DNA from: a virus
Virus record (IMG/VR): IMGVR_UViG_3300045988_142085
Location: 64,001-128,000 of that record
DNA: 64,000 nucleotides
Reading direction: 5' to 3' (one strand)
The translations under genes and the position numbers were made by a program. Below the pieces are notes generated by a model that had not been told where the DNA came from, searched no databases, and saw nothing but the letters and a program-made list of their open reading frames with translations. Position 1 is the first letter of the stretch. The number at the start of each line of letters is the position of its first letter. Of this stretch, positions 3,417 to 62,279 are shown piece after piece.

Positions 3417-6077
3417 TTAGTCAACTCCAAAATTATTTAACACAAGATTCTTTCTAGCTTCCGAATCTTTCCCCATGATATCAGATACCATCTTAGCACA
3501 CTTTTCAGCGTCTTCGATAGTAATCTTATATAAATGTCTTTTCTTAGGATCCAAGGTAGATTCCCATAATTGATCGGGATTCATTTCTCCTAATCCTTTT
3601 ATATATTGCACATGCCATTGGTCTTTTTCTTTATATTTAGCTAGCTCTTCTTTCGTATAGATATATTTATGACTATTGCCTTTAACAAGTCTAAACAAAG
3701 GAGGAGCAGCTGCATAAATATAACCGTTCTCGATTAATTCTCGATAATGATTATAGAAGAACGTAGCCCAAAGGCAAATAATATGAGCCCCGTCGTCCGA
3801 CCGTACCCTCGGTTTCCCGATACTTCATAAAGGGACTAGACTATATTTTTATCCGTTCTGGATAGCACCTCTATAGTCGTTACACATTTACGATATTTTT
3901 TTAATATCGACTTAGCACGGTATTGCCATTGCTAGCCATTTCTGGCCCATCAGGTTCTCTTGATTATAGGAGCGCCTTCGCACATAATGTCTTATTCAAC
4001 TCCAACCGTAAGCATATTATTAGTTAATATACACCGCCTTGATAGCGTTAGGGTGCTTGTAATCTCTTGCATTCCTGCAAGGACGACTAATTTTTATTAA
4101 TCAGCATCTGACATTACGACAATCTTGTTATATTTTAAATCTTCGATATTGAATGATTTATCGATGCCGCAACCTAATGCGTTAACAAGGTCTAATAGTT
4201 TGTCAGACGTAACAGTACCGCCATTCTTTTCAGTATTCATTACTTTACCGAAAATAGGTAGCACAGCTTGATATTCGGGGTCACGTGCTTGCTTACTAGA
4301 GCCTCCGGCAGAATCTTAAGAGATATTTGTTTGGACTATATCTTACTTGTTAAAGCAAGTCCTACCGTTTCGATTTTTTAAAAATCTACTCTACTCAGTT
4401 CATATATATACTATATGCTTTTCGATAGTCTCTGAACGCGTTACAGATATCCGTTTTTTTTCCGTTCTGTAATTTCGCTGCGGATAATTTATAGTTTTGA
4501 CAATGTTACTATACCTAAGCCATTACGCTTTGCCATTATTATATCACTATAATAATTTAGTTGCCAATACTAATTTAAACTTCCCCGCAATTAGATAGGT
4601 TTAACGAGAGCGATTCTGTCTTTTACCCTCGACAATAAACAGTTCGCATTTTTTAGGGTCGTCACTATGACAATCGCTAAGTTTTTCTACGACAGTAGAT
4701 TTTAATGCTTTTTTCTGTTTACGTGCATTTTCTCTTGCCTTTTTAGCATCGAGTCTAGCTTTAATACTAAGATTAATTTTACTAGTCAATTGCTTAGCAA
4801 AAGTTTTTTTCTTTTTGAGCTCTTCTCCGAAAGACTCGGAAATTAATTCTTTAACTTGATCTCGAATCTCGGGCATCTGTAAATATAGTTTATTTTGACC
4901 TTCGAATTTTGGTTCGATAGTCTTAATATTTACGATAGCTACAAGACCTTCGATCGCATCGTCTTGTGTTAAATCTTTAATATTTAACTCTTTTAATGCT
5001 TGTACTATACCAGCTTTAAACCCATTTAAATGATCGCCGCCGTTTAAAGTATTGATATTATTTACAAACGTTAAAATCGTATTAGAATATAATCCATCAC
5101 AATAATTTAATACGACATGAACAGATGTATTATCTTTTTCTCCTTTAAATTCTAACGCTTTACCGATAGTTTCTTTAGGAGTAATATCTTTTAGATAATC
5201 TAAAAGAGTCGAAGATTTTAAGTTTACCCATTCTTCGCCTAAATTATATTTGATGGTAAGACCTTCGTTAAGATAACTTAACTGCTTAAGTTTCTTTTCG
5301 AGATCTTTAATATTAATAGGATCTGGATAGATTTCAGGATCTAATCGATATTCAATACGGGTACCCGTCTTTTTGGACTTTCGTCCTTTTTTAAGTTCTT
5401 GACTTAAGATACCTTTTTTAAAGCCAATAGACCATTCATATCCATCACGCCATACTGTGGCATTAAAATATTCGGAAACCGCATTAACGCAAGAACTCCC
5501 AACCAAAATCTTCAATAAAGAACGCTACTTCTTTATCAGTTCTCTTATGAACTTCTTTATGTTTCCATAAAGTTGAGACTATATCTTCTTAGACTTCCAC
5601 TTCGAGCACCAATAACTTGTGCCCTACTCCCTTACGGGATAGTCGTTGAACTTTATATATATACTTTTTAATATATATCTTAGCTGCTGATTACCCGCCC
5701 ATACGGGCTTTCCAGCAATTCAAAAGTTTTTACAACGGCATTTATTTACCGTTTAAGCCACCAGTAGCAGAGACCTGTCCGCTAAGTGAAACGAATTTTC
5801 CTCCAGCATGCAAAGAGCCTACCGCCAATTGTATTTGAGGAATGCCATATTTTTCATTAAGTGCGACTGGGATACCACGACCTTCGTCAGTGATAATCAT
5901 TACTTGAGTTTCGGGATTGTATTCTACAGTTATACATTTACCGAACCCAGTAACGAATTCGTCGACAGCATTGTCGATAATTTCGTGAGCACAATGATTT
6001 GGGCCATTCAAGTACATTTCTTTTCGTAGTCGAACATTGTCCGGATATTCGAGTACTAAAATTTCTTGTTCAGCCAT
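3417..6077 (-). CDS. gyrB: Type II topoisomerase ATPase subunit (GyrB/T4 gp39-like), split into 4 exons by three ORF-less group I-like introns. Approximate exons: 5748-6077, 4625-5503, 4101-4315, 3417-3797.
   Basis: Exon 1 carries the GHKL ATPase motifs (EIIDNAVDE, GRGIPV, LHAGGKF, TGGLNG). Exon 2 runs VGSSCVNAVS...ELFIVEG. Exon 3, translated by hand, reads DSAGGSSKQARDPEYQAVLPIFGKVMN...MSDAD (Toprim). Exon 4 reads DGAHII..YIYAAAPPLF...GLGEMNPDQLWESTLDP. Collinear GyrB homology resumes after each gap. Confidence 0.8.
3798..4100 (-). ncRNA. putative group I intron 3 in gyrB (~300 nt, no ORF)
   Basis: Interrupts DAD|DGAHI. Contains acGACTATAgagg...aaATATAGTCtag. Boundaries approximate. Confidence 0.55.
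4316..4624 (-). ncRNA. putative group I intron 2 in gyrB (~309 nt, no ORF)
   Basis: Interrupts IVEG|DSAGG. The 5' junction GGT|AAAAG is the same as in intron 1, and it has the same GACTAT...ATATAGTC candidate P7. Confidence 0.6.
5504..5747 (-). ncRNA. putative group I intron 1 in gyrB (~244 nt, no ORF)
   Basis: The exon ends on U (GGT|AAA) and the intron ends on G (..GATTTTG|GTT). An internal candidate P7 pairing is acgGACTATccc...agATATAGTCtc. Boundaries are good to about 3 nt. Confidence 0.6.
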
Positions 6078-6945: not shown

Positions 6946-7007
6946 AATAATAATTTCCTTTCGATAATTAAAAATTATTTAAATAAATATATATCTTAAG
7001 CATTTAA

Positions 7008-7916: not shown

Positions 7917-10776
7917 TTACTTTGCCTCCTTATTTAAATAATATGAATATTTATTATTAACATCTTCCGAAGTAATACGAATTTCTTTCGTATTCTCATC
8001 GATGTCGAATAATTTATCGTCGACTAAACCTTGTACGACGCTTTTAAGTGCACGAGCACCTGTTTTTCGATCGTAGGCAAGTTTAGCAATAGTATCGACA
8101 GTATCGTCATCGAAAGTAATTTCGATATCATACATGCCGATCAATTCTTTAATTTGTTTAAAGATTGCGTGTTTTGGAGTCGTTAAAATTTGTTTTAAGT
8201 CTTCCACACTCAATTCTTTAAGCGGGCAAATTACTGGTAATCGACCTAATAATTCTGGAATAATACCAAAGTTATCGAGATCTTCAGGTAAGATATAATC
8301 GATTACGTCGTTATACTTAGATTTTTCTTCCAATACGTCTTTAGATGCTTCACTAGAGAAACCGAGGCCCGTATCTAAATCTTTATTTAACCTTGCCGCA
8401 ATCTTCTTTTCAATACCGGTAAATGCACCACCACAAATAAATAAAATATTAGTAGTATCAATTTCAACAGTAGGAGATGACATAGCAAATCCACCTTGTT
8501 GATCGTTAGACTTAATAGCGACTTTGCCGCCTTCAACGAGTTTTAATAACTCATATTGTACGTCACGACCACCGATATCACTACCTTGAGAGCCAGCATT
8601 TTTAGGATCTCGAGCAGCAATTTTATCGATTTCATCGATATAGACAATACCTTGTTGAGTTCGTTCGACATCGTTACCGGCTTCACGGTATAGTTTGGCT
8701 AAGATGCTATTAACGTCTTCACCAACGACAATTTGTTACCCTATAGGCTTTTTATCCTATAGCTCTTACAGTTACCTGTAAGTTCAGCGTACATTTTTTC
8801 AGTAAAAATATTATACAAACTGAAGTGATCACTCTTGGGAATATTTTATTCTTATCATTAAGGTTCAATTCCTACGCGTTACGGTGTCAAAAGCCTTTTA
8901 AAACTTTTGATTACCTCGGTATTTTCCACATGGGTGCTTCACCGATTTTGATCACTTTAATTACTCTGACTTATTTGTACTTTCATCAGAGAGGGCTCGT
9001 TTTAAAGATAAATATCTTTTCATTTTTCTATCGAGAAAAATAGAAGCATTAGAATATAAATAATCATAAAAAGATAATGTTAAATTTTTCTTATAAAGAA
9101 CTAATTTTTTATATGTGATATAATCATCTATTTTAAATTCAAAATTTGACAGTATTTGATTAATTGATTCTGCTAATAAAGAAGAACCAACAACTATAAC
9201 TGTTTGAATTTTTTTTATATTTTTAGTGATATATCCATTTCCATCAAAATATCCACGGATAAAACTTGAAATAAGATTTTCTTTTATATTTGGCATAAAA
9301 GCATTTTCTGTTTTATTATAAACTACACCTAATTTAAATAAATCTTCTACTAATTCTTTTGACACAATAGATACAACAGATGTTTTTCTATTTTTTCTAT
9401 GCTTAATTTCTAAATTTTTGGCGCCAATATCATTAATAAATTTATTTAAATGGTTATCATCAACAGAGCTTAACTCAATTGATAATCTATTTTTATAAAC
9501 ATTACCATCAGCCATAATAAAACCCAGCCAATATGCTTGTTTTTCTGACTCTATTTCCTTAAAAAAACTTTTATCAAACGTTACATTAGGTCTTTTATAA
9601 GTAAATCTCATATTAACATTTTTCTTTTTTAAGTATGCTGAAAATGATTTAACAGAAATTTTTAATTGTTCTGCTACTTTATACATAGGAATATTTTCTT
9701 CTACATATAGTCTTAATCCTTCAACATATCTAGGATCTTCTATTTCAAAATGGACATTTTTTTTAATTTCTATTCCATTTCGTTTAAAATATCTTCTTAA
9801 AGAACCTACATCTACATTATATTTTTTTGCTAAAGTAGAAGTAGATACTCCTTTATTTTCAGTATATTCTTTTATTGCTTTTTTATATTTATCTTCATTT
9901 TTATATCGTGTCATATTATGACCCTCCTTATGGTCATAATTATATTACACAATATATTTGTCTGTCAACCCCGATTTGGTGAGACTACTTGCATCGACAA
10001 TAACACATGGTCGACCAAGATATTTTGCTAATTGTTTAATTAAGAATGTTTTCAGTTGTGTTATCGTAAAAGTTTTTTATCTTCTACTTCTTATAGTTTC
10101 CTATAAGCTCAGCATACCTTTTTAGCGTATATTTTTTTACCAAACGCTAGAGCGGCCTCGTGGTAGAATTATATTCTTATTTTAAAAATAAGGTTCATCT
10201 ACTATGCGTTGCCCCTGACTAGAATATTATTTCTAGCCTTCGGTTCAGATTAGCATATGCACTTTATGCACTTAGCCTTCCTGCTTAATTCCGCTCAAAT
10301 AATCCAGAAGTTCATGGTTTTTTCTTCTAGAACGGCAAACTTTTACAGCCACCGCAACCCGAGGACCCCAGCATTAATATATTTGATTTCTCAACATCGA
10401 TTCCAACATCTTTTTTCTTAAACGCATTATATTCGAGAAGCTTAGTATGATTAGTAATCGCGACACTAAGAATTTTCTTAGCGTTATCCTGATTGATTAC
10501 ACTTTCATCCAAGTAGGCTTTAATTTCTTTAGGCTTAACATCAGACTTTTGAACTTTAGAAGATTTTTTCTTTTTAGGTTTTTCATCGTCTTCACCATCT
10601 AAAGATAAGCCTAAGATGTCATCGATATCAAAATCACCTTCATCGTCTTGAACTTGAGATGCCATTTTCATGACGCATTCTTGACAAATAGCGATATTTT
10701 TATTAACGGAAGACTGAAAAGTAATATTGTGACTTTTTTGATCGTCGATATCTTTACCGCAATAACTACATTTCAT
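7917..10776 (-). CDS. clpX: ClpX ATP-dependent protease ATPase subunit, split into 3 exons by two introns. Approximate exons: 10351-10776, 9969-10052, 7917-8735.
   Basis: Exon 1 has the zinc-ribbon start MKCSYCGK and ..KSNILMLGSSGCG. Exon 2 (hand translation) reads KTFLIKQLAKYLGRPCVIVDASSLTKSG, completing the Walker A. Exon 3 reads (Q)IVVGEDVNSILAKLYREAGNDVERTQQGIVYIDEIDKIA...NILFICGGAF...GARALKSVV. Confidence 0.8.
8736..9968 (-). mobile_element. group I intron B in clpX carrying a LAGLIDADG homing endonuclease gene
   Basis: A free-standing ORF with its own RBS (aaggaggg) sits inside the gap between clpX exons 2 and 3. It is flanked by ~50 nt and ~225 nt of non-coding intron sequence. Confidence 0.7.
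8961..9914 (-). CDS. LAGLIDADG-family homing endonuclease (317 aa) with N-terminal helix-turn-helix-like region
   Basis: Two LAGLIDADG motifs: WLGFIMADGNV and IRGYFDGNGYI. Confidence 0.8.
   Translation of the reverse strand: MTRYKNEDKYKKAIKEYTENKGVSTSTLAKKYNVDVGSLRRYFKRNGIEIKKNVHFEIEDPRYVEGLRLYVEENIPMYKVAEQLKISVKSFSAYLKKKNVNMRFTYKRPNVTFDKSFFKEIESEKQAYWLGFIMADGNVYKNRLSIELSSVDDNHLNKFINDIGAKNLEIKHRKNRKTSVVSIVSKELVEDLFKLGVVYNKTENAFMPNIKENLISSFIRGYFDGNGYITKNIKKIQTVIVVGSSLLAESINQILSNFEFKIDDYITYKKLVLYKKNLTLSFYDYLYSNASIFLDRKMKRYLSLKRALSDESTNKSE
10053..10350 (-). ncRNA. putative group I intron A in clpX (~298 nt, no ORF), inserted in the Walker A codons
   Basis: The exon-1 frame runs into a stop right after GSSGCG. 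Collinear ClpX sequence resumes at 10052, preceded by an intron-terminal G (..cacaactg|aaaaca). Its 3' end resembles the 3' end of intron B (gctgagcttataggaaactataag versus gctgaacttacaggtaactgtaag). Confidence 0.55.
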
Positions 10777-35893: not shown

Positions 35894-36166
35894 TTATTTA
35901 AATTTTATATAGTCTTTCTTTCTAATATCTTCCCAGAGATATTCATACATTTTCTCGACAGCATTTGTAGTATATTTCATTCTTTCTATTGATTCTTCTA
36001 TTTCTTTTGGAACAGGCATATTGAGATTATATTCGACGGCAATAGTCTTCTTGTCATAATAATATATTAAATGAGCGAATAGATAGTTAAATATATCGGA
36101 CTTAAATTTTAAATATAAACAAAAGCTTTTAATAAAATATGATTCTCTTTTCCATGTTCTATCCAT
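35894..36166 (-). CDS. hypothetical protein
   Basis: ORF in array. Confidence 0.45.
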   Translation of the reverse strand: MDRTWKRESYFIKSFCLYLKFKSDIFNYLFAHLIYYYDKKTIAVEYNLNMPVPKEIEESIERMKYTTNAVEKMYEYLWEDIRKKDYIKFK

Positions 36167-36270
36167 TTGAGATATATGTATTTCACAGTTGCTGTCTTTA
36201 TATAAATAATCGCTCGCTATCGCTCGCCGCCCCTTTCATTATTTAACAATAATATTATTCTAAGACCATA

Positions 36271-36974: not shown

Positions 36975-37196
36975 TTAATTTTTTAGTTCAGATTTTCTAA
37001 CATTACCATCTAAATCGACTACAAATCCTTTTGGAATAATCCATTGATCTTTTGGAGCAATCGGTAAAATACCGATTTCGTCGATATATTTAAACTCATC
37101 TTCGGTTAATCCTTTACCGGTCATAATTTGATAATGAGAAATTAATTTTCCGCCCGGTAATATTTTATTTTTAATTACATGGTTATAGTTTTTCAT
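36975..37196 (-). CDS. hypothetical protein (73 aa), first gene after the large non-coding region
   Basis: RBS aaggag 8 nt upstream of the ATG. Confidence 0.5.
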   Translation of the reverse strand: MKNYNHVIKNKILPGGKLISHYQIMTGKGLTEDEFKYIDEIGILPIAPKDQWIIPKGFVVDLDGNVRKSELKN

Positions 37197-37482
37197 TTTG
37201 TTTACTCCTTTATGATATAATAATATAATTAATTATGTTTGAATTTAAAATAATAAAATCGAGCCGCTATTACACATCTCTTTATTTAACTCTTAATATA
37301 TATTTAATTATAACTACCTATATAATAATAATATAATACTCTATACATTTATTATACTATGATTAATTTACTATTATACTAGTAATATTTATATAATTGT
37401 TTATGTTATATGTTATTATAATAATATATTAGCGTAACTGGTCGGCTTTAGCCGAACTGTTGCTGTCAATTATATTAAATAA

Positions 37483-37870
37483 GGTTTGAAGTATTGTAGC
37501 TAGTTTATTTTAAAAACAATACGAAAACAAATGAATTAGGTAAGTAGAGATATGTTTCAATATATTAATTAAAATATTAAAATTAACCAAAAACACTTGA
37601 AATAGAACGGTTGTAGAGTGTTTCTGCCCCTCTTTGTCTCAAAAAATAGAAAACACTCAAAAATATCAATAATAAGCAGGGTTTGAAGTATTATAGTAGA
37701 TTAAATGCTTAAAATATTAAAATGAGTAAAAAATATGCAATTAAGGTAGATGTGAGAGTGTTATATATATAGTCTAAAACTTAAAATAGCCTAATATTGC
37801 TTTAAAAACGGTGTGAGATAAGTGTTTCCTACCCTCCTCCCCCACCCAGCAAGCAATACTACACTTGCAG
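37483..37870. repeat. tandem direct repeat, 2 copies of a ~195-nt unit
   Basis: GGTTTGAAGTATTRTAGTAG.., ..AATTARGTARRTRGAGA..GTT and ..AACGGTKTRAGA..GTGTTTC.. recur with a period of about 196 nt. Confidence 0.6.
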
Positions 37871-38380
37871 GATGTTGTCGTCGGGGCGCTCGTGAGGCGA
37901 CAGCGGGCTTTATTATTTTTTTTATTTATTATATATATAGTATATATAGCCTAAGTTATATAATAGTATAAGCTACGCAATAATTAAAGGCGGTGCCTCT
38001 AAGACTCTTGTTATTTAAAAGGCATTAATCTGTGTTATAGTATTATATAGACAGCCTTAATATTATATTATATATATGTTAAATAATAATATATCAGTCT
38101 ATATACGAGGCGCCAAGTCCTCTCTTAACACACGGGAATTGGCTCAATCAGGTGACGGTTATTTAAGAAATAATCTATACTTAATAATTATACAACAAAT
38201 GTATAATCCATTTAGGTTATCCTATTATATACTATAGATATAATAAATTAATACTAAGATTAAAAAAGGTTAGATAAAATCTACATTTTTAGCGACGATA
38301 TTTTTTGATAAAAAAATACCAAAAAATATCACGAATTTCTATTATACAAAAATAATGTATAAATAATTATTTTAATATTT

Positions 38381-38506
38381 TTAACCCGCTACACAACCAT
38401 AGATTGTAATATACCGGTGTAACAAGTTACACCGCTCCGCAATTTTTAATATAAAATAATATAACCAAGGCCCCCTGAAATAAATTCAGCAGGGTCTTTT
38501 CTTTAT
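38381..38506 (+). ncRNA. sRNA-like unit 1: TTAACCCGC box, TGTAATAT -10, 8-bp hairpin, intrinsic terminator
   Basis: TTAACCCGC at 38381, TGTAATAT at 38405, hairpin cggtgtaa/ttacaccg, terminator ccctgaa..ttcaggg followed by TCTTTTCTTT. Confidence 0.45.
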
Positions 38507-38569
38507 ATTATTATATATATAATATAATAAACACTAACAATTAAAATAAAAAAATTATTTTTATTTTTT

Positions 38570-38682
38570 TTAACCCGCGGTGCTAACTTAACATGTAATA
38601 TACCGGTGAACGACAGTTCACCGCTTCCACTCACTTAAATATATAATAATCCTCAGAATAAAATCTGAGGATATTTTTTTTG
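38570..38682 (+). ncRNA. sRNA-like unit 2 (same architecture as unit 1)
   Basis: TTAACCCGC at 38570, TGTAATAT, hairpin cggtgaac/gttcaccg, terminator cctcaga..tctgagg followed by ATATTTTTTTT. Confidence 0.45.
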
Positions 38683-38689
38683 GAATTAA

Positions 38690-38787
38690 TTAACCCGCTT
38701 CGCTAATATACTACGTAATATACTAGTGGACGCAGTCCACTACTTCAGAACCTAAGCATCCTGACCTAACGGCCAGGATTTTTTCAT
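38690..38787 (+). ncRNA. sRNA-like unit 3 (same architecture as units 1 and 2)
   Basis: TTAACCCGC at 38690, CGTAATAT, hairpin tagtggac/gtccacta, terminator atcctg..caggat followed by TTTTTC. Confidence 0.45.
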
Positions 38788-39960
38788 TATTAAGCATAAA
38801 CAAAGTTGGCCCATTTTAAAAATGCTCCAAACCCTTACTCACGTAATCTGCTGTGAAGATAAACAACTCGCAGAGGATCGTACACGAATAACCGTTTAAC
38901 GTATTCGGGCCTTAGCCCTCGATACTACTTTATATATAATATATATATAATTATTCTAATATTATTTAAAGATTTAAATAAGCGTCACTATTATTATCTA
39001 AATATAATAATTTATTTTAATATAATTAAAAAACCGTTCGCCTAAAATATTCGGTGTTCATTCTCTCTATCCATAACACCTAGTAAAAGAGGTAACAGTA
39101 TAACGCCGGAACCAGAGCAATAAAATTCCAGCTAACTGGTTAGAGCTTTCAAACTCTAACAACTTGGAATGATTAGTACTCGATAATAATTGTATCCTAA
39201 TAATTAATATTAATTATTATAAATTAATCTCGCACTAAGCAGAGCCTTCGTCACGAACTATAACACAGAAAATTGTAATTACGCTACGCTAATACAACCA
39301 GCCAACTTCGCTGCGCTATCTTTCTCTGGATCGGATCAAGACATTCTTTTATAATATATATAATTTAATAAAAGAATCAAAAGGGATTCGCCACCTAATA
39401 TAACCTTCGCCCCTAAATTAAATCCGGGGTCTCAGAACATATATTCCTTCGGAAATAGCCGGCGGCTCAAAATAATTGAATTATTTAAATCCAATTATAA
39501 TCACTGTTGCTCACCTAATTGAATAACTAGCAATAGTGTCCTATATAATATATATACTAATACTTAATTAATAATATACTTCATATATTATTATTAATAA
39601 CTAACATTACTTTTAAATAAAAAGTAATACAAAATACATATGGGGGGCGAAAAATATTCGAAATTTTATAACCTAAAGTTTCAGATTTTTCAGCCCGGAT
39701 TTTCGCTTTTATATATAGTACGACATAGTATACCGCTCACGGTCGTCCTCGCTAACGCTCGTTCCTTACCTACAGCTCAGTCGCAAGCTCCTTTCGCTTT
39801 CGGGATGCGTTTGCTATACGGCCCTCCGGGCCTCCATTATACTATACATATAGATAGCTTAAGGCAGGCGCTTTAATCGGTCGCTCCCGCTCCCTCTTCG
39901 CTTCTTTATCTAACCTATCTATATCCTTACGGATCGTAGCTAAAAGCTTAATACTAATAA

Positions 39961-40320
39961 CTTACTTCTCTTAATAAGAGAAGATAACAAGAGAACTTAA
40001 TATACTATATACATATATAATAAACGCTCGCTACCGCTCGCTTCTAATATAAATATAATATATATAATAATAAATACTTACTTTCTTAGGAAGAAAGATA
40101 ACAAAGAAGATATACGCTCGCTTCGCTCGCTCTTAATATAAATAATAAATACACACTTACTCTCTTAGAAAGAGAGTAACAGAGAACTCTAATAATAAAT
40201 AATAAACTGCTTACTTCTCTAAAGAGAAGATAACAAGAGACACATATACGGCTCGCTTATGCTCGCCTTGTTAAATAAATAAAATGAATATGCTTACTCT
40301 CTTAACAAGAGAGATAACAG
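39961..40320. repeat. array of five ~25-nt polypyrimidine/polypurine hairpins (cTTACTYTCTTa-N3-aAGARAGATAAC, each followed by AAGAGAA) interleaved with CGCTCGCT..CGCTCGCT motifs. Iteron-like, possibly an origin.
   Basis: Hairpins at 39961, 40077, 40155, 40209 and 40293. Their stems covary (cttctctta/taagagaag, ctttctt/aagaaag, ctctctt/aagagag). Confidence 0.55.
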
Positions 40321-40751
40321 AGAATATTATAACGGCCGGCTCACGTGCGTTCGCACGGCCTACTATACAAAATAAGAGATCTACGCTCAGCTCGCATTCG
40401 CTCGCTTCGCTTATAGAGCGCTCGTGTGGCTTTATTAAGCAGTAACAACTTCACGCTATAAGTAATCATAGCCACCCAATTAAATATCATATACTGACGC
40501 ATATGATATTCAAAAAAAATAATTTTAGTACATACATATATATTGGATTAAAACCATACTCCAATATATATGTATATATTAAATAAATTTTAAAAGAGCA
40601 AGCCGTCCTTTATATATACAGGACACCGCATCAAAAAAATATAGCTTTAGTCGGGAGCCATATTAATATTATTTATTTAAATAAAAATAAGGTTTAGATA
40701 ACAGATGCGACCCACTCCCGTGTGCTTTTCCATTATCTAAACCTTTAATAA

Positions 40752-41234
40752 CTAGCCTTCAGCTTGAGCTTCTTTAGCTTGGTTAGATACCATAACGATA
40801 TCATCGCTACCATCACCAGTAGAACCGAAAGATTTCTTAATAGAACGAATTTCATCGCTCTTAGTTAATTCGCCCCAGGATGCTTTTGCTTCGTCTACGA
40901 TGACACTAGTGCCACCAATTCCAAGCTCAGCAACCTTTTTAAGGCCACCAAAGAGACCTTTGGATACAACTTTAATACCGCCAATGCCAGCATCTTTAGT
41001 AATGCCAGCAACGATACCTAATTTCTTTCCGCCCCAGTTCACAATGCCACCAGTAGTAGCTTTGAATTTTGCCATTTTGTAGGCAGAAAGAATATCTTCT
41101 ACGACTGCATCGTCGCATTCTACTGTAAGAACTGTGCCATCTTGTGTGACACTTGCGTTGAATTCTTCAGTAGCTTTTTCATTGATATAATTAAGGATTT
41201 CTAAGTTTTCGTTTGTAATCTTAAATTGAGCCAT
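40752..41234 (-). CDS. hypothetical virion-block protein (160 aa, Gly-rich)
   Basis: ORF in the higher-GC block. The start is preceded by a terminator/promoter-like cassette. Confidence 0.55.
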   Translation of the reverse strand: MAQFKITNENLEILNYINEKATEEFNASVTQDGTVLTVECDDAVVEDILSAYKMAKFKATTGGIVNWGGKKLGIVAGITKDAGIGGIKVVSKGLFGGLKKVAELGIGGTSVIVDEAKASWGELTKSDEIRSIKKSFGSTGDGSDDIVMVSNQAKEAQAEG

Positions 41235-41290: not shown

Positions 41291-41980
41291 TTAAAATACA
41301 CCAGACACGTCTTCAACTTTCTTATTCGGGATTTCACGAACAAGATTAAATGTTTTGCTAGCCAAAGCATTAATTGCACGGCTAGAAGCACTTTCTGGAC
41401 GTTTAGCATACAAGTCACCATTGTGACGAGTAGCTACAGGGTAAGAGTAGTTACCCTTCATACCATTGGCGAATTTCACGCCATCTTCTGTAATACCATC
41501 TTTGAATACCAGCATTTGACCTTCTTCAAGTGCAACGCCTTCAGGCACTACTAGGTCAAAACCAGATAATTCAGATTGACGTGTGATTCGAAGATTAATG
41601 CCAGCTTCTTTGCTAGCTTCAAGAGCTTCTGCTAAACGAGTATAAGCAGTTGTATGCTCAGGAGTGTCATATTCGCTAGTAGCGAGTTCTGCACTTTCTT
41701 CAGGAGTATTGCCTTTAGCCAACAAGCCCATCAACTGATAAGTCTTGATAGCAACAGAATCAGGCAATACCATTTGTGCTGTCATATTGTCATATTCAGC
41801 ACGACGAGAAACAAAAAGATTTACTGCATCAGCAGTATGAAGAATTGCTACCGGCACAAACGCACCTTCGCGTTTCGCCAATTTAGCAACGTTTTCTTTG
41901 CCCCATGCTTGGAATGCACGAGCAAATCCGCCAAGTTTTGTACCAGCGATAACAGATGTAATGATAATGTTTTTAGCCAT
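41291..41980 (-). CDS. hypothetical virion-block protein (229 aa)
   Basis: Strong RBS ttaaggaggctattatcATG. A ~400-nt structured leader lies upstream. Confidence 0.6.
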   Translation of the reverse strand: MAKNIIITSVIAGTKLGGFARAFQAWGKENVAKLAKREGAFVPVAILHTADAVNLFVSRRAEYDNMTAQMVLPDSVAIKTYQLMGLLAKGNTPEESAELATSEYDTPEHTTAYTRLAEALEASKEAGINLRITRQSELSGFDLVVPEGVALEEGQMLVFKDGITEDGVKFANGMKGNYSYPVATRHNGDLYAKRPESASSRAINALASKTFNLVREIPNKKVEDVSGVF

Positions 41981-44469: not shown

Positions 44470-45531
44470 TTAATCCAATACTGTAAGCATCAAAGCCACA
44501 GATTTGATTTCTTTTCCTCCTTTCTCGAACTGATTAAAGCACATATTATCCACATGTACTCTAACCTTAACAGATCCGTAAAGCTTTGTAATCATTTCAC
44601 GGATTTCGCCTGAAAGAGATAGACCGCACAATTGTACATAGCCTTCACCTTTTAAGCTTTTGACATATAGACCATCAGATGGAGCTTTGCCATCTAAACC
44701 TTTACAAATGTGAAGGTCTTTATTTTTGGCAACAGAACCATCCATTAATATAAACTCTTCATAGCGAGTTACTTCGCCATTAGAATTTTCATTTCGATAA
44801 CCTTGAGCCATCGCAATATTTTTAGCAGCATTAGCAAAGTCTGCAGATTTTACTAACAACTGTTTTTTAGGACGGTCTAATTCCATACCGTCTAATGGAG
44901 TAACAATGATATACAGAGATCTGTTCTCTCTAATGAATAACTCATATGACCCATTTACTGTAGGGTCACAGAATAAATATTCATCAGAGCTAAGGCCCTT
45001 ATTGAAGAAGACGTATTCGCCTTCTTCTTCGTCAAGACCTGTTGCAGGACGATACGCATCTGCAGCGCCCTTAAATCTTGGAGTCACTTCTACTATACGA
45101 AGAGACTCTAGTTGCTTCTCTTCACTAGCATGTTCCCATGCATAGTGAACAAGGTCTTTTTTAAGGCATACACTGCCATAAATAAAACCTTGTTTACGAG
45201 CTTCTTCATAAACATTTGTTTCGTCTGGATTAATGCCCATGCCCCAGATAAGCATGTTGCGAACATAATTCGCAATCTTGGACATTGGAGAGCTCATTAG
45301 CTCTCCTTTAATGTTCTCATTGGAGGACTTTCTAATGTCCTCAATGAGTTCATTTACATAACCAGTAAGGCCTTTAGCGTTACTGGTTTCTTTTTTTAGA
45401 TTGATGCCGTATGCATTTACAACATCTTTAAGTTGCTCAAGAGCTACTTGAGCAACCTCATTTTGAATTTTGTATAATCCAGAAGAAATACCTAAACTTT
45501 TCACTTGTTGGTTATTTTTTACTAATTTCAT
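44470..45531 (-). CDS. hypothetical virion-block protein (353 aa)
   Basis: Long ORF with higher GC codons. Start overlaps the stop of the upstream gene. Confidence 0.6.
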   Translation of the reverse strand: MKLVKNNQQVKSLGISSGLYKIQNEVAQVALEQLKDVVNAYGINLKKETSNAKGLTGYVNELIEDIRKSSNENIKGELMSSPMSKIANYVRNMLIWGMGINPDETNVYEEARKQGFIYGSVCLKKDLVHYAWEHASEEKQLESLRIVEVTPRFKGAADAYRPATGLDEEEGEYVFFNKGLSSDEYLFCDPTVNGSYELFIRENRSLYIIVTPLDGMELDRPKKQLLVKSADFANAAKNIAMAQGYRNENSNGEVTRYEEFILMDGSVAKNKDLHICKGLDGKAPSDGLYVKSLKGEGYVQLCGLSLSGEIREMITKLYGSVKVRVHVDNMCFNQFEKGGKEIKSVALMLTVLD

Positions 45532-46928
45532 TTTGTTTCTCCTTTTAGGTACTCGCGACCAATTTTTACTGCGTCGCTTAATGTTAAAGTACCTTCTTCT
45601 AAATTAAAATCAATACATGCGTATTGTTTTCTACGCATAGAGTGAATACCTTTAAGCATATCGCCCAAAGGATCGAAAGCTGTGCCAGGACCAGCTTTGG
45701 CCATATCAATGATATGACCAATGATACTTGGCGCGATAATTAATACGTCGACCAAGTAATTTAATATGGATTTATCATCCATATTAGAAGCCAAGAAATC
45801 TTCATACATGGCTTTAACTTTATCTGTACAACATTCATCTTCATGAATATCGACATTAGCCATATAATGACGTTGATATTCTGGCTTGGATACATCCACT
45901 TTGAGATCAAGATTCTTGCGAATAATGTCGCAAGACTGATGGAACACGATTGTTCCTCGTGTTCCAACTATTTCAAGAACGAGGGAAGATTTGTTTACAT
46001 ATTTTCCCACATTCATGTCGGTCAAGCCAGACACAAATACGTTCTCGATAAATTCAGCATAACTAGCTGCTTCAAGTAAGCCTTGAGCAGCTACCTCGCT
46101 TTTAATGCCTACCATATAATGGACCTTGCCATCATATAGATCAGCATCAGAACCGACCAACCACAGATGTTTATCTGTGTCATGATCGGAACCGCCTTGA
46201 GACATTTTAAAGTACTCAGAGCCTGTGCAGATGAAACCAGAAATCGGAATCATCTTCAATTCGTCAGCTGCAGCATTAACTAAACCTTGAGCTAACTTTT
46301 CAAGGTTTTTTACCACGCCTTTGGACGCTAAATATTTCATGGCGTCCTTAACGTATTCGTCATATCTGTTATTTAACAGATTAACGAAATGCTGTGCAGG
46401 TAAAATCACAGCGTTGTAAGATTCTCCAGCATGTGGGAATCTTATACCTTCAGCCTTAATACCAAGACCAAGGTTTAGACAAAGTTCCATAAGTTCTTTG
46501 TCATTTTTTGCAGCAATAAGTTCTGCTTTAATTTCGTCAGAAACTTCATTGCCTACAACATCAATGGCACGATATCCGCACTTTCTTAAAGTACGGATAA
46601 ACTTAGTATTAGAAACACCGATTTGGTGTTCCTCTACTAAGCGTGTCAGAGAAAATTTTAATATAGGATCTACCTCTGCAGTAGCCATAAAGCTGCCACA
46701 GTTAGAGTCCCACTTAGAGTCCTCAAACATCTTGTTTAAGGCCTCAACTATATTCTTCACGAAAGATATCCCAATTTGGGAATCTTCTTGAAGTATTTGA
46801 GGCATAAGAGCTACAGCTCTATCTACCTCAGATCCATGAAAGTTGCCATTGAAATGAGCATTAATTTTTGCTGCCACTTCTTTTTTAGCCACTTGAGCGA
46901 TGTACGCTCTATTTAACTTTTTATTCAT
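45528..46928 (-). CDS. hypothetical virion-block protein (466 aa)
   Basis: Long ORF. Confidence 0.6.
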   Translation of the reverse strand: MNKKLNRAYIAQVAKKEVAAKINAHFNGNFHGSEVDRAVALMPQILQEDSQIGISFVKNIVEALNKMFEDSKWDSNCGSFMATAEVDPILKFSLTRLVEEHQIGVSNTKFIRTLRKCGYRAIDVVGNEVSDEIKAELIAAKNDKELMELCLNLGLGIKAEGIRFPHAGESYNAVILPAQHFVNLLNNRYDEYVKDAMKYLASKGVVKNLEKLAQGLVNAAADELKMIPISGFICTGSEYFKMSQGGSDHDTDKHLWLVGSDADLYDGKVHYMVGIKSEVAAQGLLEAASYAEFIENVFVSGLTDMNVGKYVNKSSLVLEIVGTRGTIVFHQSCDIIRKNLDLKVDVSKPEYQRHYMANVDIHEDECCTDKVKAMYEDFLASNMDDKSILNYLVDVLIIAPSIIGHIIDMAKAGPGTAFDPLGDMLKGIHSMRRKQYACIDFNLEEGTLTLSDAVKIGREYLKGETK

Positions 46929-46958
46929 TATTTTTTCTCCTCTTTCTGAACAAAGCTC

Positions 46959-48068
46959 CTACACAACATATTGGCAATGTTGCGTGGAGATCCTCCCACG
47001 AGTCTCGTGGAAGAATTGTAAAATACGCCACTCCCATGCTTTAGGAGATGGCGCCAATTCAGGTGTACGTTTCATGCCATTCTCATCAGTAATTGCTAAA
47101 AGCTTACCAGAAGGATTACCAAAGATGGCAACATTATAATTACCTTTCTTATAATAATCACTAAAATGTTCGGCATGGATCACACCATATTCCATACCGT
47201 AAACCATAACTTTGTCCATGGCCAAGAAGGCTTGTTTCCAAGCTTCCATAGACTTAGCATGGAGTGGCTGAGAACCAACCTTAATTGATAAGGCTGTAAT
47301 TCTCATTTGATGGTAGCTAGGTTTACTAGCCGGCATGCCATATGTATCACAAAACCACTCGTGGTTGTGATACGCCATGCCATCATAGCTATCACCAAAC
47401 TCGGTCGAATCGAGCTTAGGTACGATTGCAATGCAATCTTTGTTTAAGTCGATTCCAATAGTTTGTGATGGAGCTGCAAATAGCCCAATATAAGTGTTGA
47501 GCTTTTGCGCTTTACCAGGCGTTAGTGCAATGGCATGGAAGCCTTGTGCACATAACGCTTGTACACGAGCCTCGAACTTTTCACGTTCGGACTCGAATAC
47601 CATTACTACCATCAATTGCCGAATCATTGATGGTGATAATTGTAGTGCATTTAAATAACGAAGCAATGGATGTTTCTTCGTCATTTCAAGCATTGCAATA
47701 ACATCTTGAACTTCTCTTAAGTGAGAAAAGTCCAATTTCGCTATCCCTGGGATATAAGCATTCGTGTCAACGAATACTTTATTTTCCCATCTTACACCAT
47801 CGGATGGGCCATCTAAACAGATGACACCAGTAGCAATACTGGCACGAATTGTATCCCCATGCTCGAGAATACCAGAAACTGGAAGACTGGAAATGCTAGC
47901 ATGCGCTAATGGCACACGAGCCTTTCCCTTCAACTCAAACGTGAAGCTAGACACATTTGCAGTTTCAAACTGCTGTAATGCGCCTAGATCTTCCATATGG
48001 TTATGGAAGACTTGTTTTACTGCCTCTTGAGTAGCACGTTGTTTTCTTAGTGATTTAATTTTATCCAT
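46959..48068 (-). CDS. hypothetical virion-block protein (369 aa)
   Basis: Long ORF. Confidence 0.6.
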   Translation of the reverse strand: MDKIKSLRKQRATQEAVKQVFHNHMEDLGALQQFETANVSSFTFELKGKARVPLAHASISSLPVSGILEHGDTIRASIATGVICLDGPSDGVRWENKVFVDTNAYIPGIAKLDFSHLREVQDVIAMLEMTKKHPLLRYLNALQLSPSMIRQLMVVMVFESEREKFEARVQALCAQGFHAIALTPGKAQKLNTYIGLFAAPSQTIGIDLNKDCIAIVPKLDSTEFGDSYDGMAYHNHEWFCDTYGMPASKPSYHQMRITALSIKVGSQPLHAKSMEAWKQAFLAMDKVMVYGMEYGVIHAEHFSDYYKKGNYNVAIFGNPSGKLLAITDENGMKRTPELAPSPKAWEWRILQFFHETRGRISTQHCQYVV

Positions 48069-61085: not shown

Positions 61086-62279
61086 TTAACTTATACGTTT
61101 CCACATATTAACGACGATATATGGAGGCATATTATTATGTGGTTGATTTTTACCGGACGGCAAGAAATTATGAGTATGAGCTCCGCTTTCACTTGTTTCA
61201 CCAGTCCAAGATTTAGAGGCTTTAAACCATACTCTTTGACGTGGGTCTCCTTTGTTGCCAGCCGGACCAATTGTCTCATGTCGTTCATGATAGAATGCAC
61301 CATGAACACCATAATCAAAGTTACTTTGCAGTGCTCCTACAAAATCACCAGTGATATCCATTGTACCACGAGTATGAGTATGGCCACCAGCCATTTCTCC
61401 AGCGCCATGGTTATGAGAAGCTAATTCGTCTTCAGTTAGACGATGTTCTTTTTCGCCGCCAACTTCGTTAAGGTTAAAACCATCGCCGCTGTTAACAAGC
61501 ATACGACCTGCCGGCATTCTTTCCCATGTACCACCAAAAATAGCAGCTGGATCGACATTATTAATATTCATATAAATAGAACCGACCGGATATAATTGAC
61601 CAGCTAATCGGTTTAATTGATCCAAAGCTGAGCTTAATTTTTTATTTAACTGTCCGACAGTTACCACATCGTTAGCTTCGACTCCGTCGGCTACATTACT
61701 AATAATACGTTTAACTTCAGTGTTACCGACCGATATTTGATTAGCAAGCGCAGCAACCGAGTCTGCACCTAACGCAACACTGTTGTCACCAGTTGCCGAA
61801 GCATTAACGCCAACGGAAGTGCCACGACCCAAAATAGAATTACCGATAGACATTGCTTTATCTCGGAGCTTGTACGCAATTGTCGTAGCGATTTTTGGGC
61901 GACCGCTCTCATTAGATATAGAAATATTGTCGCCAGCAATAATGCCATTAATACCTGTTCTTTCATCGATCTCCTCTTTAGTATACGTTTCGTCACGGCC
62001 CATAAATAATTTAGCTGTTTGCGTCTTCGTATAATAAGGACTTAAATCGACTTCGGCACTAATTTCGTTATTACTATTAATGCTAATAGAGTTACCTGCT
62101 TTAAGTTTATTTTGTTTAGATTCTTTTAAATTTTGAATATCTTCAAAATTCTGAATCATCTCGTCGGGATCTTGAATATAGATCTCGCTTTTATTATATT
62201 TATTATTACTCTTAGCAGTCTTTAATTGCAAAGCACTTAAAATATTGACTTTAAGAGATTCAACTTTTAATTTATTCAC
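61086..62279 (-). CDS. tail fiber protein with C-terminal phage tail-collar domain
   Basis: PVGSIYMNINNVDPAAIFGGTWERMPAGRMLVN...EGGEKEHRLTEDELASHNH matches the tail-collar domain pattern (as in the T4 gp12 C-terminus). Confidence 0.65.
   Translation of the reverse strand: MNKLKVESLKVNILSALQLKTAKSNNKYNKSEIYIQDPDEMIQNFEDIQNLKESKQNKLKAGNSISINSNNEISAEVDLSPYYTKTQTAKLFMGRDETYTKEEIDERTGINGIIAGDNISISNESGRPKIATTIAYKLRDKAMSIGNSILGRGTSVGVNASATGDNSVALGADSVAALANQISVGNTEVKRIISNVADGVEANDVVTVGQLNKKLSSALDQLNRLAGQLYPVGSIYMNINNVDPAAIFGGTWERMPAGRMLVNSGDGFNLNEVGGEKEHRLTEDELASHNHGAGEMAGGHTHTRGTMDITGDFVGALQSNFDYGVHGAFYHERHETIGPAGNKGDPRQRVWFKASKSWTGETSESGAHTHNFLPSGKNQPHNNMPPYIVVNMWKRIS

Follow-up and report, generated by a model that had tools for sequence, protein, structure and literature searches.

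An array of predicted intrastrand triplex motifs and G·A mini-hairpins conserved at a single gene-free locus of an uncultured phage and its relatives

We examined an array of small structured modules in 64,000 nt of DNA from the IMG/VR virus record IMGVR_UViG_3300045988_142085 (positions 64,001 to 128,000 of that record; this whole stretch is referred to as the window), which belongs to an uncultured phage of ∼230 kb. The array comprises five hairpins and a set of G·A hairpins, spans ∼530 bp (39879–40405) and lies in a long gene-free region. All substantial open reading frames (ORFs) of the window are on the minus strand, and minus-strand ORFs at 36975–37196 and 40752–41234 flank the 3,555-bp gap, in line with the ∼3.5-kb non-coding stretch within a co-directional gene array that an initial annotation of the sequence had described. 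Regional GC content is 27–35% per kb, higher than the ∼20% given there. Small ORFs within the gap encode at most 78 amino acids (aa) and are not conserved, since indels among relatives are not multiples of three. On the high-coordinate side lie structural and RNA polymerase-like genes, with a baseplate gene at 61086–62279, a homologue of RNA-dependent RNA polymerase (RdRP)-like polymerases at 44470–48068 and genes for proteins of 229 and 160 aa. On the low-coordinate side, small AT-rich ORFs come first, and DNA-metabolism genes lie beyond them; TnpB, a LAGLIDADG gene, a gyrB that contains a group I intron and thyA are found there. The phage has a gyrase B subunit of its own. A tRNA search of the window returned none. 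The gap and the five hairpin units, which we call triplex units, are as follows:

37197–40751 (3,555 bp), no strand: gene-free region, from ORF maps; ∼80% nucleotide identity in close relatives
39961–39995, minus strand: triplex unit 1, TTCTCTT-GTTATC-TTCTCTT-att-AAGAGAA-GTAAG, with a symmetric arm; from sequence and orthologues
40077–40108, minus strand: triplex unit 2, TTCTTT-GTTATC-TTTCTT-cct-AAGAAA-GTAAG; from sequence and orthologues
40156–40186, minus strand: triplex unit 3, TTCTCT-GTTAC-TCTCTT-tct-AAGAGA-GTAAG; from sequence and orthologues
40210–40240, minus strand: triplex unit 4, TCTCTT-GTTATC-TTCTCT-tt-AGAGAA-GTAAG; from sequence and orthologues
40293–40324, minus strand: triplex unit 5, TTCTCT-GTTATC-TCTCTT-gtt-AAGAGA-GTAAG; a type that the distant clade also has

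Related loci (∼100) were retrieved from IMG/VR, ENA and Logan using the OTKONC RNA core of the gap and the neighbouring 229-aa protein as queries, and many of them sit on contigs of 220–242 kb. Nothing similar was found among GenBank phages (blastn distant mode) or in GTDB genomes searched for a unit. When metagenomes were scanned with a 15-mer from a G·A hairpin, only one of the 120 loci belonged to the family, unrelated GC-rich contigs having swamped the result. Close relatives (group 1) share ∼80% identity over the whole gap. In a second clade, the 229-aa-type protein is only ∼30% identical and the gene order is the same: the 229-aa-type gene, the 160-aa-type gene, then a non-coding stretch of >3.5 kb in which four units, GC boxes and OTKONC are found. 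A third small clade (loci L069, L074, L077 and L078) has three units with arm types of its own.

All five irregularly spaced hairpins reported in the initial annotation are present between 39961 and 40324, with start-to-start spacings of 116, 79, 54 and 83 bp, and their homopurine/homopyrimidine mirror anatomy was described correctly. Read on the plus strand, each pyrimidine-loop-purine hairpin is followed by a second purine block, giving the layout CTTAC-Py(6–7)-loop(2–3)-Pu(6–7)-G(A)TAAC-Pu(6–7), where Py and Pu denote pyrimidine and purine arms. In every unit, the second purine block is the mirror image of the purine arm of the hairpin. On the gene-sense (minus) strand, the same unit reads 5′-Py3-G(N3–4)C-Py-loop-Pu-GTA-3′, with Py3 as the third block. 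Across the relatives, seven arm types occur:

Py TTCTCTT, Pu AAGAGAA, Py3 TTCTCTT
Py TTTCTT, Pu AAGAAA, Py3 TTCTTT
Py TCTCTT, Pu AAGAGA, Py3 TTCTCT
Py TTCTCT, Pu AGAGAA, Py3 TCTCTT
Py TTTCTC, Pu GAGAAA, Py3 CTCTTT
Py CTCTTT(+), Pu AAAGAG(A), Py3 TTTCTC(T)
Py TTTCTTT, Pu AAAGAAA, Py3 TTTCTTT

In all seven, Py3 and Pu are complementary when both are read in the 5′-to-3′ direction. Units were extracted by requiring a Watson–Crick hairpin and one anchoring G only, leaving the six upstream bases free, which yielded 56 distinct sequences in 246 instances. Parallel complementarity between Py3 and Pu held in 300 of 300 cells (50 distinct units from ∼60 related genomes), with changes on both sides at five of the six positions. 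Slid registers of the parallel pairing reached 54–88%, and an antiparallel control reached 70% in register and ∼90% at a one-base shift, G·U being counted as paired. The Watson–Crick stem score of the extracted units is circular, as this pairing was imposed by the extraction. Arms of 6–8 nt, perfect stems of 6–8 bp, hairpin loops of 2–4 nt and linkers of 5–6 nt are conserved over ∼250 instances; the loops vary and are pyrimidine-rich, the arms stay exact, and G-T-A follows almost every unit. C is never doubled in the third strand, in agreement with the known intolerance of consecutive C+·G-C triples, which are destabilising (PMC7583470).

Two orthologous positions show how the three blocks change together. 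In one genome (L019/L026/L043), the orthologue of unit 2 has CTCTTT/TTTCTC/GAGAAA, so that a single triple differs by T to C, T to C and A to G, a three-way compensated substitution. At the position of unit 4, four loci (L046, L048, L049 and L054) carry TTCTTT/TTTCTT/AAGAAA in place of TCTCTT/TTCTCT/AGAGAA between unchanged flanks; this swap could be explained by gene conversion from unit 2.

A strict search for a Py6/Pu6 hairpin with an exact parallel-complement block 4–7 nt upstream recovered four of the five units on the window's minus strand, the fifth being missed through the linker cut-off alone; it also matched one low-complexity poly-T/poly-A site at ∼38315, and gave no match on the plus strand. 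In 100 first-order Markov sequences of 64 kb, the mean was 0.02 matches and the maximum was 1. These numbers bear on the explanation that the units have no function of their own and are decaying copies of repeats of the repetitive extragenic palindrome (REP) or miniature inverted-repeat transposable element (MITE) kind, or a by-product of low-complexity TC/GA sequence. Such arms do give near-matches easily, as the ∼90% of the shifted antiparallel control illustrates, and intrastrand triplex motifs of 6–7 nt are common by chance in scrambled genomes (PMC4666352). However, the strict motif is expected 0.02 times per 64 kb and five units lie within 360 bp, their number, order and position are maintained in clades whose neighbouring protein is only ∼30% identical, they are absent elsewhere in the window and in the 10–20 kb flanks of the relatives, and their arms are exact where their loops vary. 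We consider a lack of function very improbable. 

The units have a homopyrimidine/homopurine Watson–Crick hairpin and a third block that is Hoogsteen-complementary in the correct polarity, and both their arms and their connecting loops fall within the ranges published for class IV and class II motifs (arms of 6–15 nt, loops of 1–6 nt; PMC4666352). They are accordingly predicted to be an intrastrand triplex motif, of class IV on the gene-sense strand and of class II on the complement. A mirror relation is the defining feature of triple-helix formation and has no meaning for a protein reading B-DNA, and the predicted fold is intrastrand because the inverted repeat and the mirror repeat share one purine arm on a single strand. 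Other pairings were rejected. Unit 3 could pair through its third block with the Py arm of unit 4, but this fails for the TTTCTT units and in the distant clade, where there is no partner. An alternative hairpin with Py3 antiparallel to Pu has at most 5 bp and reaches 70% in register and ∼90% when shifted, never 100%. A clustered regularly interspaced short palindromic repeats (CRISPR) array was also discarded: the units differ from one another, and the spacers are conserved between genomes.

The second module corresponds to the "CGCTCGCT clamps" of the initial annotation, which had placed paired GC islands before each hairpin. On the plus strand such islands do precede units 1, 2, 3 and 5, the one before unit 1 being degenerate (CGGTCGCTCCCGCTCCCT), and unit 4 has none; further islands lie beyond unit 5 at 40339–40354 and 40390–40410. 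On the gene-sense strand, these boxes fold as NNGANN-[GNA/GNNA]-NNGANN hairpins, in which two Watson–Crick steps stand on either side of a tandem G·A pair. The hairpins of the window are:

40390–40405, minus strand: G·A hairpin GCGAGC-gaat-GCGAGC, overlapping a GCGAAGC mini-hairpin core with its 5′ base at 40410
40339–40354, minus strand: GC box GCGAAC-gcac-GTGAGC within GGCC...GGCC; CCGAGC-gcaa-GCGAGG in other genomes; an alternative fold, CGTGCG-aa-CGCACG, is possible
40251–40266, minus strand: G·A hairpin GCGAGC-ataa-GCGAGC; loops gtaa, gata, gcta and ggta in relatives
40116–40130, minus strand: G·A hairpin GCGAGC-gaa-GCGAGC with core GCGAAGC; the most conserved box, with 85 instances across loci
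40026–40041, minus strand: G·A hairpin GCGAGC-ggta-GCGAGC with core GCGGTAGC
39907–39921, minus strand: weak A/T-rich G·A hairpin
39879–39894, minus strand: G·A hairpin GGGAGC-ggga-GCGACC; conserved in L029, L033 and L053
36212–36227, minus strand: G·A hairpin GCGAGC-gata-GCGAGC standing alone between genes, ∼45 nt upstream of ORF 35894–36166

In the array zones of ∼60 loci, the gene-sense strand has 348 perfect G·A hairpins (47 distinct sequences, 16 covarying stem types), and the antisense strand has none. Within the gap of the window, seven lie on the minus strand, a density ∼12 times that of the rest of the window, and the plus strand is free of them. The loops are mostly GAA (125), GCCA (48), GTCA (28), GTA (27) and GCA (22), with fewer of each of the others listed; four boxes of the window have the variant loops GAAT, GCAC, ATAA and GGT. 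The base after the hairpins is G in ∼82% of contexts, but GTA begins at offset 0 in 23% only. Apart from the copy at 36212–36227, which adjoins a near-copy of the TTATTTAAATAA box described below, and a few isolated matches, mostly in ORFs, the G·A hairpins are confined to the array zone (loci of 12–20 kb). Both modules occur at essentially a single locus per genome and are not repeated in front of other genes. The A/T spacers between them are conserved even across distant clades (∼30% protein identity).

The boxes covary as hairpins. Among 13 aligned group-1 arrays, GGCGAGC-GTAA-GCGAGCC alternates with GCCGAGC-GATA-GCGAGGC, so that the outer stem of the hairpin at 40251–40266 is GGC...GCC in some genomes and GCC...GGC in others, and GCGAGC-GGTA-GCGAGC alternates with ACGAAC-GTAT-GTGAGT, the latter being the orthologue of 40026–40041 in L050, L052 and L057, with two compensated pairs. 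These alternations are compensatory for a fold with a G·A/A·G step between Watson–Crick steps, and the change from GCGAGC...GCGAGC to ACGAAC...GTGAGT breaks the direct repeat and keeps every pair. Folding is specific to one strand, since its complement would have T·C and C·T mismatches. Nearest-neighbour folding recovers the G·A hairpin, although it gives no bonus for sheared G·A pairs or GNA loops. Pairing of the GC boxes with a distant complement was rejected, there being no GCGAGCG on the plus strand of the region. The cores GCGAAGC, GCGGTAGC, GCGTTAGC, GCGGGAGC and similar ones match the mini-hairpin DNA motif GCGNAGC/GCGNNAGC, of which the gap has 10 copies on the minus strand and one on the plus strand.

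The initial annotation had interpreted the hairpins and their GC clamps as initiator-binding iterons, and a classical double-strand origin or packaging site would indeed offer iterons or pac boxes to an initiator or small terminase, with the A/T-rich DNA as unwinding element. The locus is unique per genome, repeated and A/T-rich, it lies in a long gene-free region, its GC half-sites are 9–11 bp apart, and many metagenomic contigs break within the gene-free region. However, substitutions keep pairing and not repeat identity (GCGAGC/GCGAGC to ACGAAC/GTGAGT; GGC..GCC to GCC..GGC), the mirrored third block would be meaningless to a protein that reads B-DNA, unit spacing is irregular (54–116 bp), and no initiator or terminase gene was recognised nearby. 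Since the GC boxes covary as hairpins and the third block as a mirror, the substitutions point to intrastrand folding of one strand and not to double-strand sites. Cumulative GC skew, proposed earlier as a check, falls monotonically through the region with no switch, although coding-strand bias could mask one. Altogether, a double-strand origin or packaging site seems quite unlikely. An origin-type function as such is still possible and gains indirect support from the mini-hairpins, because GCGNAGC/GCGNNAGC elements occur at the primase origins of G4, St-1 and alpha3, at ssiA and at N4 promoters (PMC13037366).

Neither GC skew nor the contig ends lend support to a terminus or a bidirectional origin at this place, and we obtained no evidence for a packaging site. 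The region is internal in many contigs of ∼230 kb, and one of 229,898 bp closes into a circle by a 79-nt terminal overlap. Ends that do fall in the gap are scattered, or lie ∼2 kb from the array in tandem repeats that vary between genomes (units of 14, 21, ∼77 or ∼195 nt at the far gap end, 37472–37872), so that genome termini in the gap were rejected. It looks as though assemblies broke at repeats and not at a fixed terminus. The 2 × 195-bp tandem repeat noted earlier in this zone is present (∼37472–37872) but degenerate, with ∼54% identical columns, and was not called by Tandem Repeats Finder. This degenerate direct repeat of ∼197 bp contains GAAACACT/CAACACTC motifs. Several contigs of 220–234 kb (L025, L032, L096, L098 and L099) end in the equivalent repeat zone.

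Covariation supports the prediction that both module types fold as single strands of gene-sense polarity, which we regard as very probable. As the folding molecule, DNA appears somewhat more probable than RNA. Among the tetraloops of the G·A hairpins, 133 of 170 (78%) have a pyrimidine at position 3 (GCCA, GTCA, GTTA, GCTA, GGTA, GATA, GACA) and are therefore not GNRA loops, and there are 178 instances of GNA triloops. This loop spectrum fits DNA mini-hairpins, in which any N is allowed in the loop and whose RNA counterparts are far less stable (PMC13037366). Single-mismatch variants of the G·A hairpins comprise 10 with G·T and 12 with A·C, showing no wobble preference, and G·U is essentially absent from the ∼250 unit stems. 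Three further elements of the gap concern the question of transcription:

38792–38962, minus strand: full-length OTKONC RNA (RF03053), scoring 170 bits (gathering score 141); no other Rfam family was matched in the gap
40690–40742, minus strand: long hairpin with a T-run directly after the 160-aa gene; the equivalent in L095 differs in sequence
40673–40684, no strand: palindromic 12-mer TTATTTAAATAA, between the terminator and the array

The modules could instead act in RNA, as parts of one or more gene-sense non-coding RNAs in which the units would be pyrimidine-motif RNA triplexes and the GC boxes G·A/GNNA hairpins, with compact folds that would keep exonucleases off the RNA or serve as binding sites for a protein of the phage or its host. 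The folds share their strand with the neighbouring genes and the OTKONC RNA, and the terminator followed by the probable promoter motif TTATTTAAATAA lies directly upstream of the array. The pyrimidine motif is found only on the gene-sense strand and can form in RNA, whereas the purine motif cannot (PMC4666352). Natural RNA triple helices contain at most six consecutive triples, a similar size (PMC7102945). The gene-sense reading of one L050 unit contains a U·G pair at its loop end, and the long intergenic regions of phage phi14:2 are very highly transcribed. By contrast, among the G·A hairpins GNA triloops predominate and 78% of the tetraloops depart from GNRA, RNA versions of mini-hairpins are much less stable, G·U is essentially missing from the unit stems and not in excess in the G·A hairpins, the A/T spacers persist in clades as distant as 30% protein identity, and a search of the array against Rfam gave no family, even at E ≤ 1. 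We regard RNA modules as the main rival reading and a serious one, though of rather low probability.

Of the readings considered, the most likely is that the array marks a site where DNA opens to start RNA or DNA synthesis. Our tentative proposal, for which we judge the chances to be somewhat below even, is a single-strand DNA initiation zone that is origin-like or hairpin-promoter-like. The modules would act once the DNA is unwound: Py and Pu would form a hairpin of 6–8 bp, and Py3 would lie parallel to Pu in its major groove, with T(U)·A-T(U) and C+·G-C as the triples formed. As unusually stable folds, the triplex hairpins and G·A mini-hairpins would lock one strand between easily melted A/T spacers, and the locked strand would keep the duplex open or present structured single-stranded DNA. 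A polymerase could then start RNA there, either a primer, as at the G4, St-1 and alpha3 origins and ssiA, or a transcript, as at the early promoters of N4. Placing N4 geometry on the unit hairpins puts the start at the conserved purine after the invariant G-T-A, which is arithmetic and not evidence. G-T-A is of the 5′-GTN-3′ type used by several phage primases.

A transcript start would fit a phage with an RdRP-like two-barrel RNA polymerase encoded next door. Its homologue in crAss-like phages, an RdRP-type virion polymerase, transcribes single-stranded or denatured double-stranded DNA efficiently and native double-stranded DNA poorly or not at all, and its early transcripts lack a recognisable promoter motif; in phi14:2, the long intergenic regions show the highest transcription, from the earliest sampled times (bioRxiv 10.1101/2020.03.07.982082). 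In a more specific and unlikely version of this proposal, the array would be a composite non-B-DNA device whose triplexes and G·A mini-hairpins sequester the non-template, gene-sense strand and expose the opposite strand as template for the RdRP-like polymerase. 

Several points weigh against initiation on folded single-stranded DNA. We estimate a small number of independent covariation events, ∼3–5, so that the statistics given above overstate independence, and the arms are of low diversity, with seven types. At N4, G4 and ssiA, the structured strand is the template, which would here give RNA antisense to all genes. Cumulative GC skew has no inflection at the gap, and no primase, replication initiator or N4-type polymerase was identified nearby. 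A run of 6–8 DNA triples including C+·G-C is only marginally stable at neutral pH, and an RNA triplex of this length would be more stable under such conditions than a DNA one. The array is on the same strand as all flanking genes and the OTKONC RNA, and with a probable promoter motif upstream at 40673 it may simply be transcribed.

The kinds of element involved, intrastrand triplex motifs and mini-hairpin DNA, are already known; a conserved, covarying, interleaved array of them at a single phage locus is not described in the literature that we searched or in Rfam. Prokaryotic intrastrand triplex motifs (Hoyne and Maher 2000/2002; Holder et al. 2015, ITxF, TM_ECO/BoxC) likewise consist of three homopurine/homopyrimidine blocks on one strand, with arms of 6–8 nt, loops of 2–6 nt that are less conserved than the arms, and class IV paired with class II. 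The known bacterial motifs, however, are dispersed, mostly G/C-rich class II and linked to genome instability, whereas the array described here is A/T-rich class IV/II, sits at one syntenic phage locus, shows three-way compensated substitutions and has a second module interleaved. Mini-hairpin motifs recur where a primase or polymerase starts on single-stranded phage DNA (G4, St-1, alpha3, ssiA, N4), in variants such as GCGGAGC in N4 and GCGTTAGC in St-1 and alpha3 (PMC13037366). With the complementary-strand origins of G4, St-1 and alpha3, RSF1010 ssiA and the virion RNA polymerase promoters of N4, the array shares the cores GCGAAGC, GCGGTAGC, GCGTTAGC and GCGGAGC, a strand-specific fold and a position in a non-coding phage region. 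It differs in that a tandem G·A and a further G-C step lengthen the core (NNGANN-loop-NNGANN), and in that each genome has six to nine copies, paired with triplex units.

N4 has three tandem hairpin promoters that are extruded by supercoiling (PMC4496689). Its early promoters, with stems of 5–7 bp and loops of 3 nt, resemble the array as small tandem hairpins of similar size in non-coding DNA (units with 6–8 bp and 2–4 nt; GNA loops). There, a GC-rich heptamer and loop purines contact a T7-like polymerase, whereas the unit loops here are variable and pyrimidine-rich; the N4 promoters also lack the third mirror block. No T7-like or N4-like polymerase was found, the candidate here being the RdRP-like two-barrel enzyme. 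RNA triple helices (the element for nuclear expression (ENE) of PAN and MALAT1; the telomerase, SAM-II and preQ1-II pseudoknots) have, like the units, major-groove U·A-U triples with isolated C+·G-C and a similar number of triples. Their topology differs from that of the units, in which a 5′ tail would fold back onto a plain hairpin; the units have neither a pseudoknot nor the U-rich internal loop by which an A-tract is clamped, and they contain no A-tract partner. None of these RNA elements is known to occur in phages, which a review of RNA triple helices (PMC7583470) never mentions.

Catalogues of bacterial intrastrand triplex motifs go back 25 years, and studies of their occurrence and function in vivo are still sparse. 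In the array, coordinated substitutions keep a third strand in register over clades at ∼30% protein identity; RNA secondary structures were established by comparative evidence of this kind. The analysis yields three small objects: a 35-nt unit, a 16-nt G·A hairpin and the 530-bp array. If it serves as an initiation zone, the array could account for how start sites are located by phages whose RdRP-like polymerases prefer single-stranded DNA. If the composite device were real, three-stranded DNA structure in place of sequence would define a promoter or origin, and three-way covariation would for the first time document biological selection of a nucleic-acid triple helix. Should the array act as RNA, it would add a new topology to the few natural RNA triple helices, and the first from a phage.

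The OTKONC RNA lies ∼1 kb from the array, which is outside its model; in all clades examined except L074, the two share the gene-free region and the strand. It is also present in L033, L095 and L097, with a promoter-like TTATTTAAAT box just upstream, and a literature search on OTKONC gave no result. Judging by its sequence, the hairpin at 40690–40742 is likely a terminator that separates the upstream operon from the array. Between this terminator and the array lies an A/T-rich inverted repeat (40516–40591) with 35-nt arms that are 83% complementary; the distant clade has an equivalent hairpin of different sequence at 8350–8410 of L095. The TTATTTAAATAA box has 23 matches with at most one mismatch in the window, compared with 5.3 expected. 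Exact copies are found at 6975, 7930, 13638, 40673, 42029 and 42973, often 30–50 nt upstream of ORF starts, and one precedes the 229-aa gene, so a role as phage promoter or regulatory box is possible.

On the plus strand, opposite to all genes, 38381–38790 holds three tandem small units, which the distant clade has kept. In each, a conserved TTAACCCGC...TGTAATATAC box is followed by an 8-bp hairpin that covaries between copies, an A/U-rich stretch and a hairpin with a U-tail; fold z-scores are −3.7 to −6.0, and the units look like three small RNA genes. We rejected GTATATTAC as a general promoter, since it is not enriched and its exact copies are confined to these three units. A GC-rich plus-strand hairpin (GTCGTCGGGGCGCTCGTGAGGCGACAGCGGGC) followed by a T-run at 37878–37948 is among only four segments of the gap that can be aligned with the distant clade (∼75% identity).

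The neighbouring proteins had no match in Pfam, PHROGs or PDB sequences. The 229-aa gene (41291–41980, minus strand) and the 160-aa gene, which sits between it and the array, always precede the non-coding region; available homologues of the 160-aa protein are all at least 71% identical. An AlphaFold model of the 229-aa protein (predicted local distance difference test score 76.6) gave weak matches to RNase H-like folds (NurA, RNase HI, RuvC, the C-terminal half of UvrC), and the first catalytic Asp is not conserved. At 44470–48068 on the minus strand, three ORFs of 353, 466 and 369 aa are jointly homologous (26–28% identity) to one distant-clade protein of ∼1,493 aa, which has weak PF05183 (RdRP) and PF06908 (YpsA) matches. 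The three ORFs may represent a split two-barrel RNA polymerase adjoining the non-coding region. Farther away, a group I intron (RF00028, 94 bits; 5555–5780, minus strand) lies between the GyrB-domain ORF at 4601–5515 and the next ORF, and the phage topoisomerase gene appears to be split by it. A LAGLIDADG endonuclease ORF is found at 8961–9914, and a TnpB/IS605 OrfB-type protein (OrfB_IS605 and a Cas12f1-like TNB domain) is encoded at 19780–20991 on the minus strand, amid small phage ORFs.

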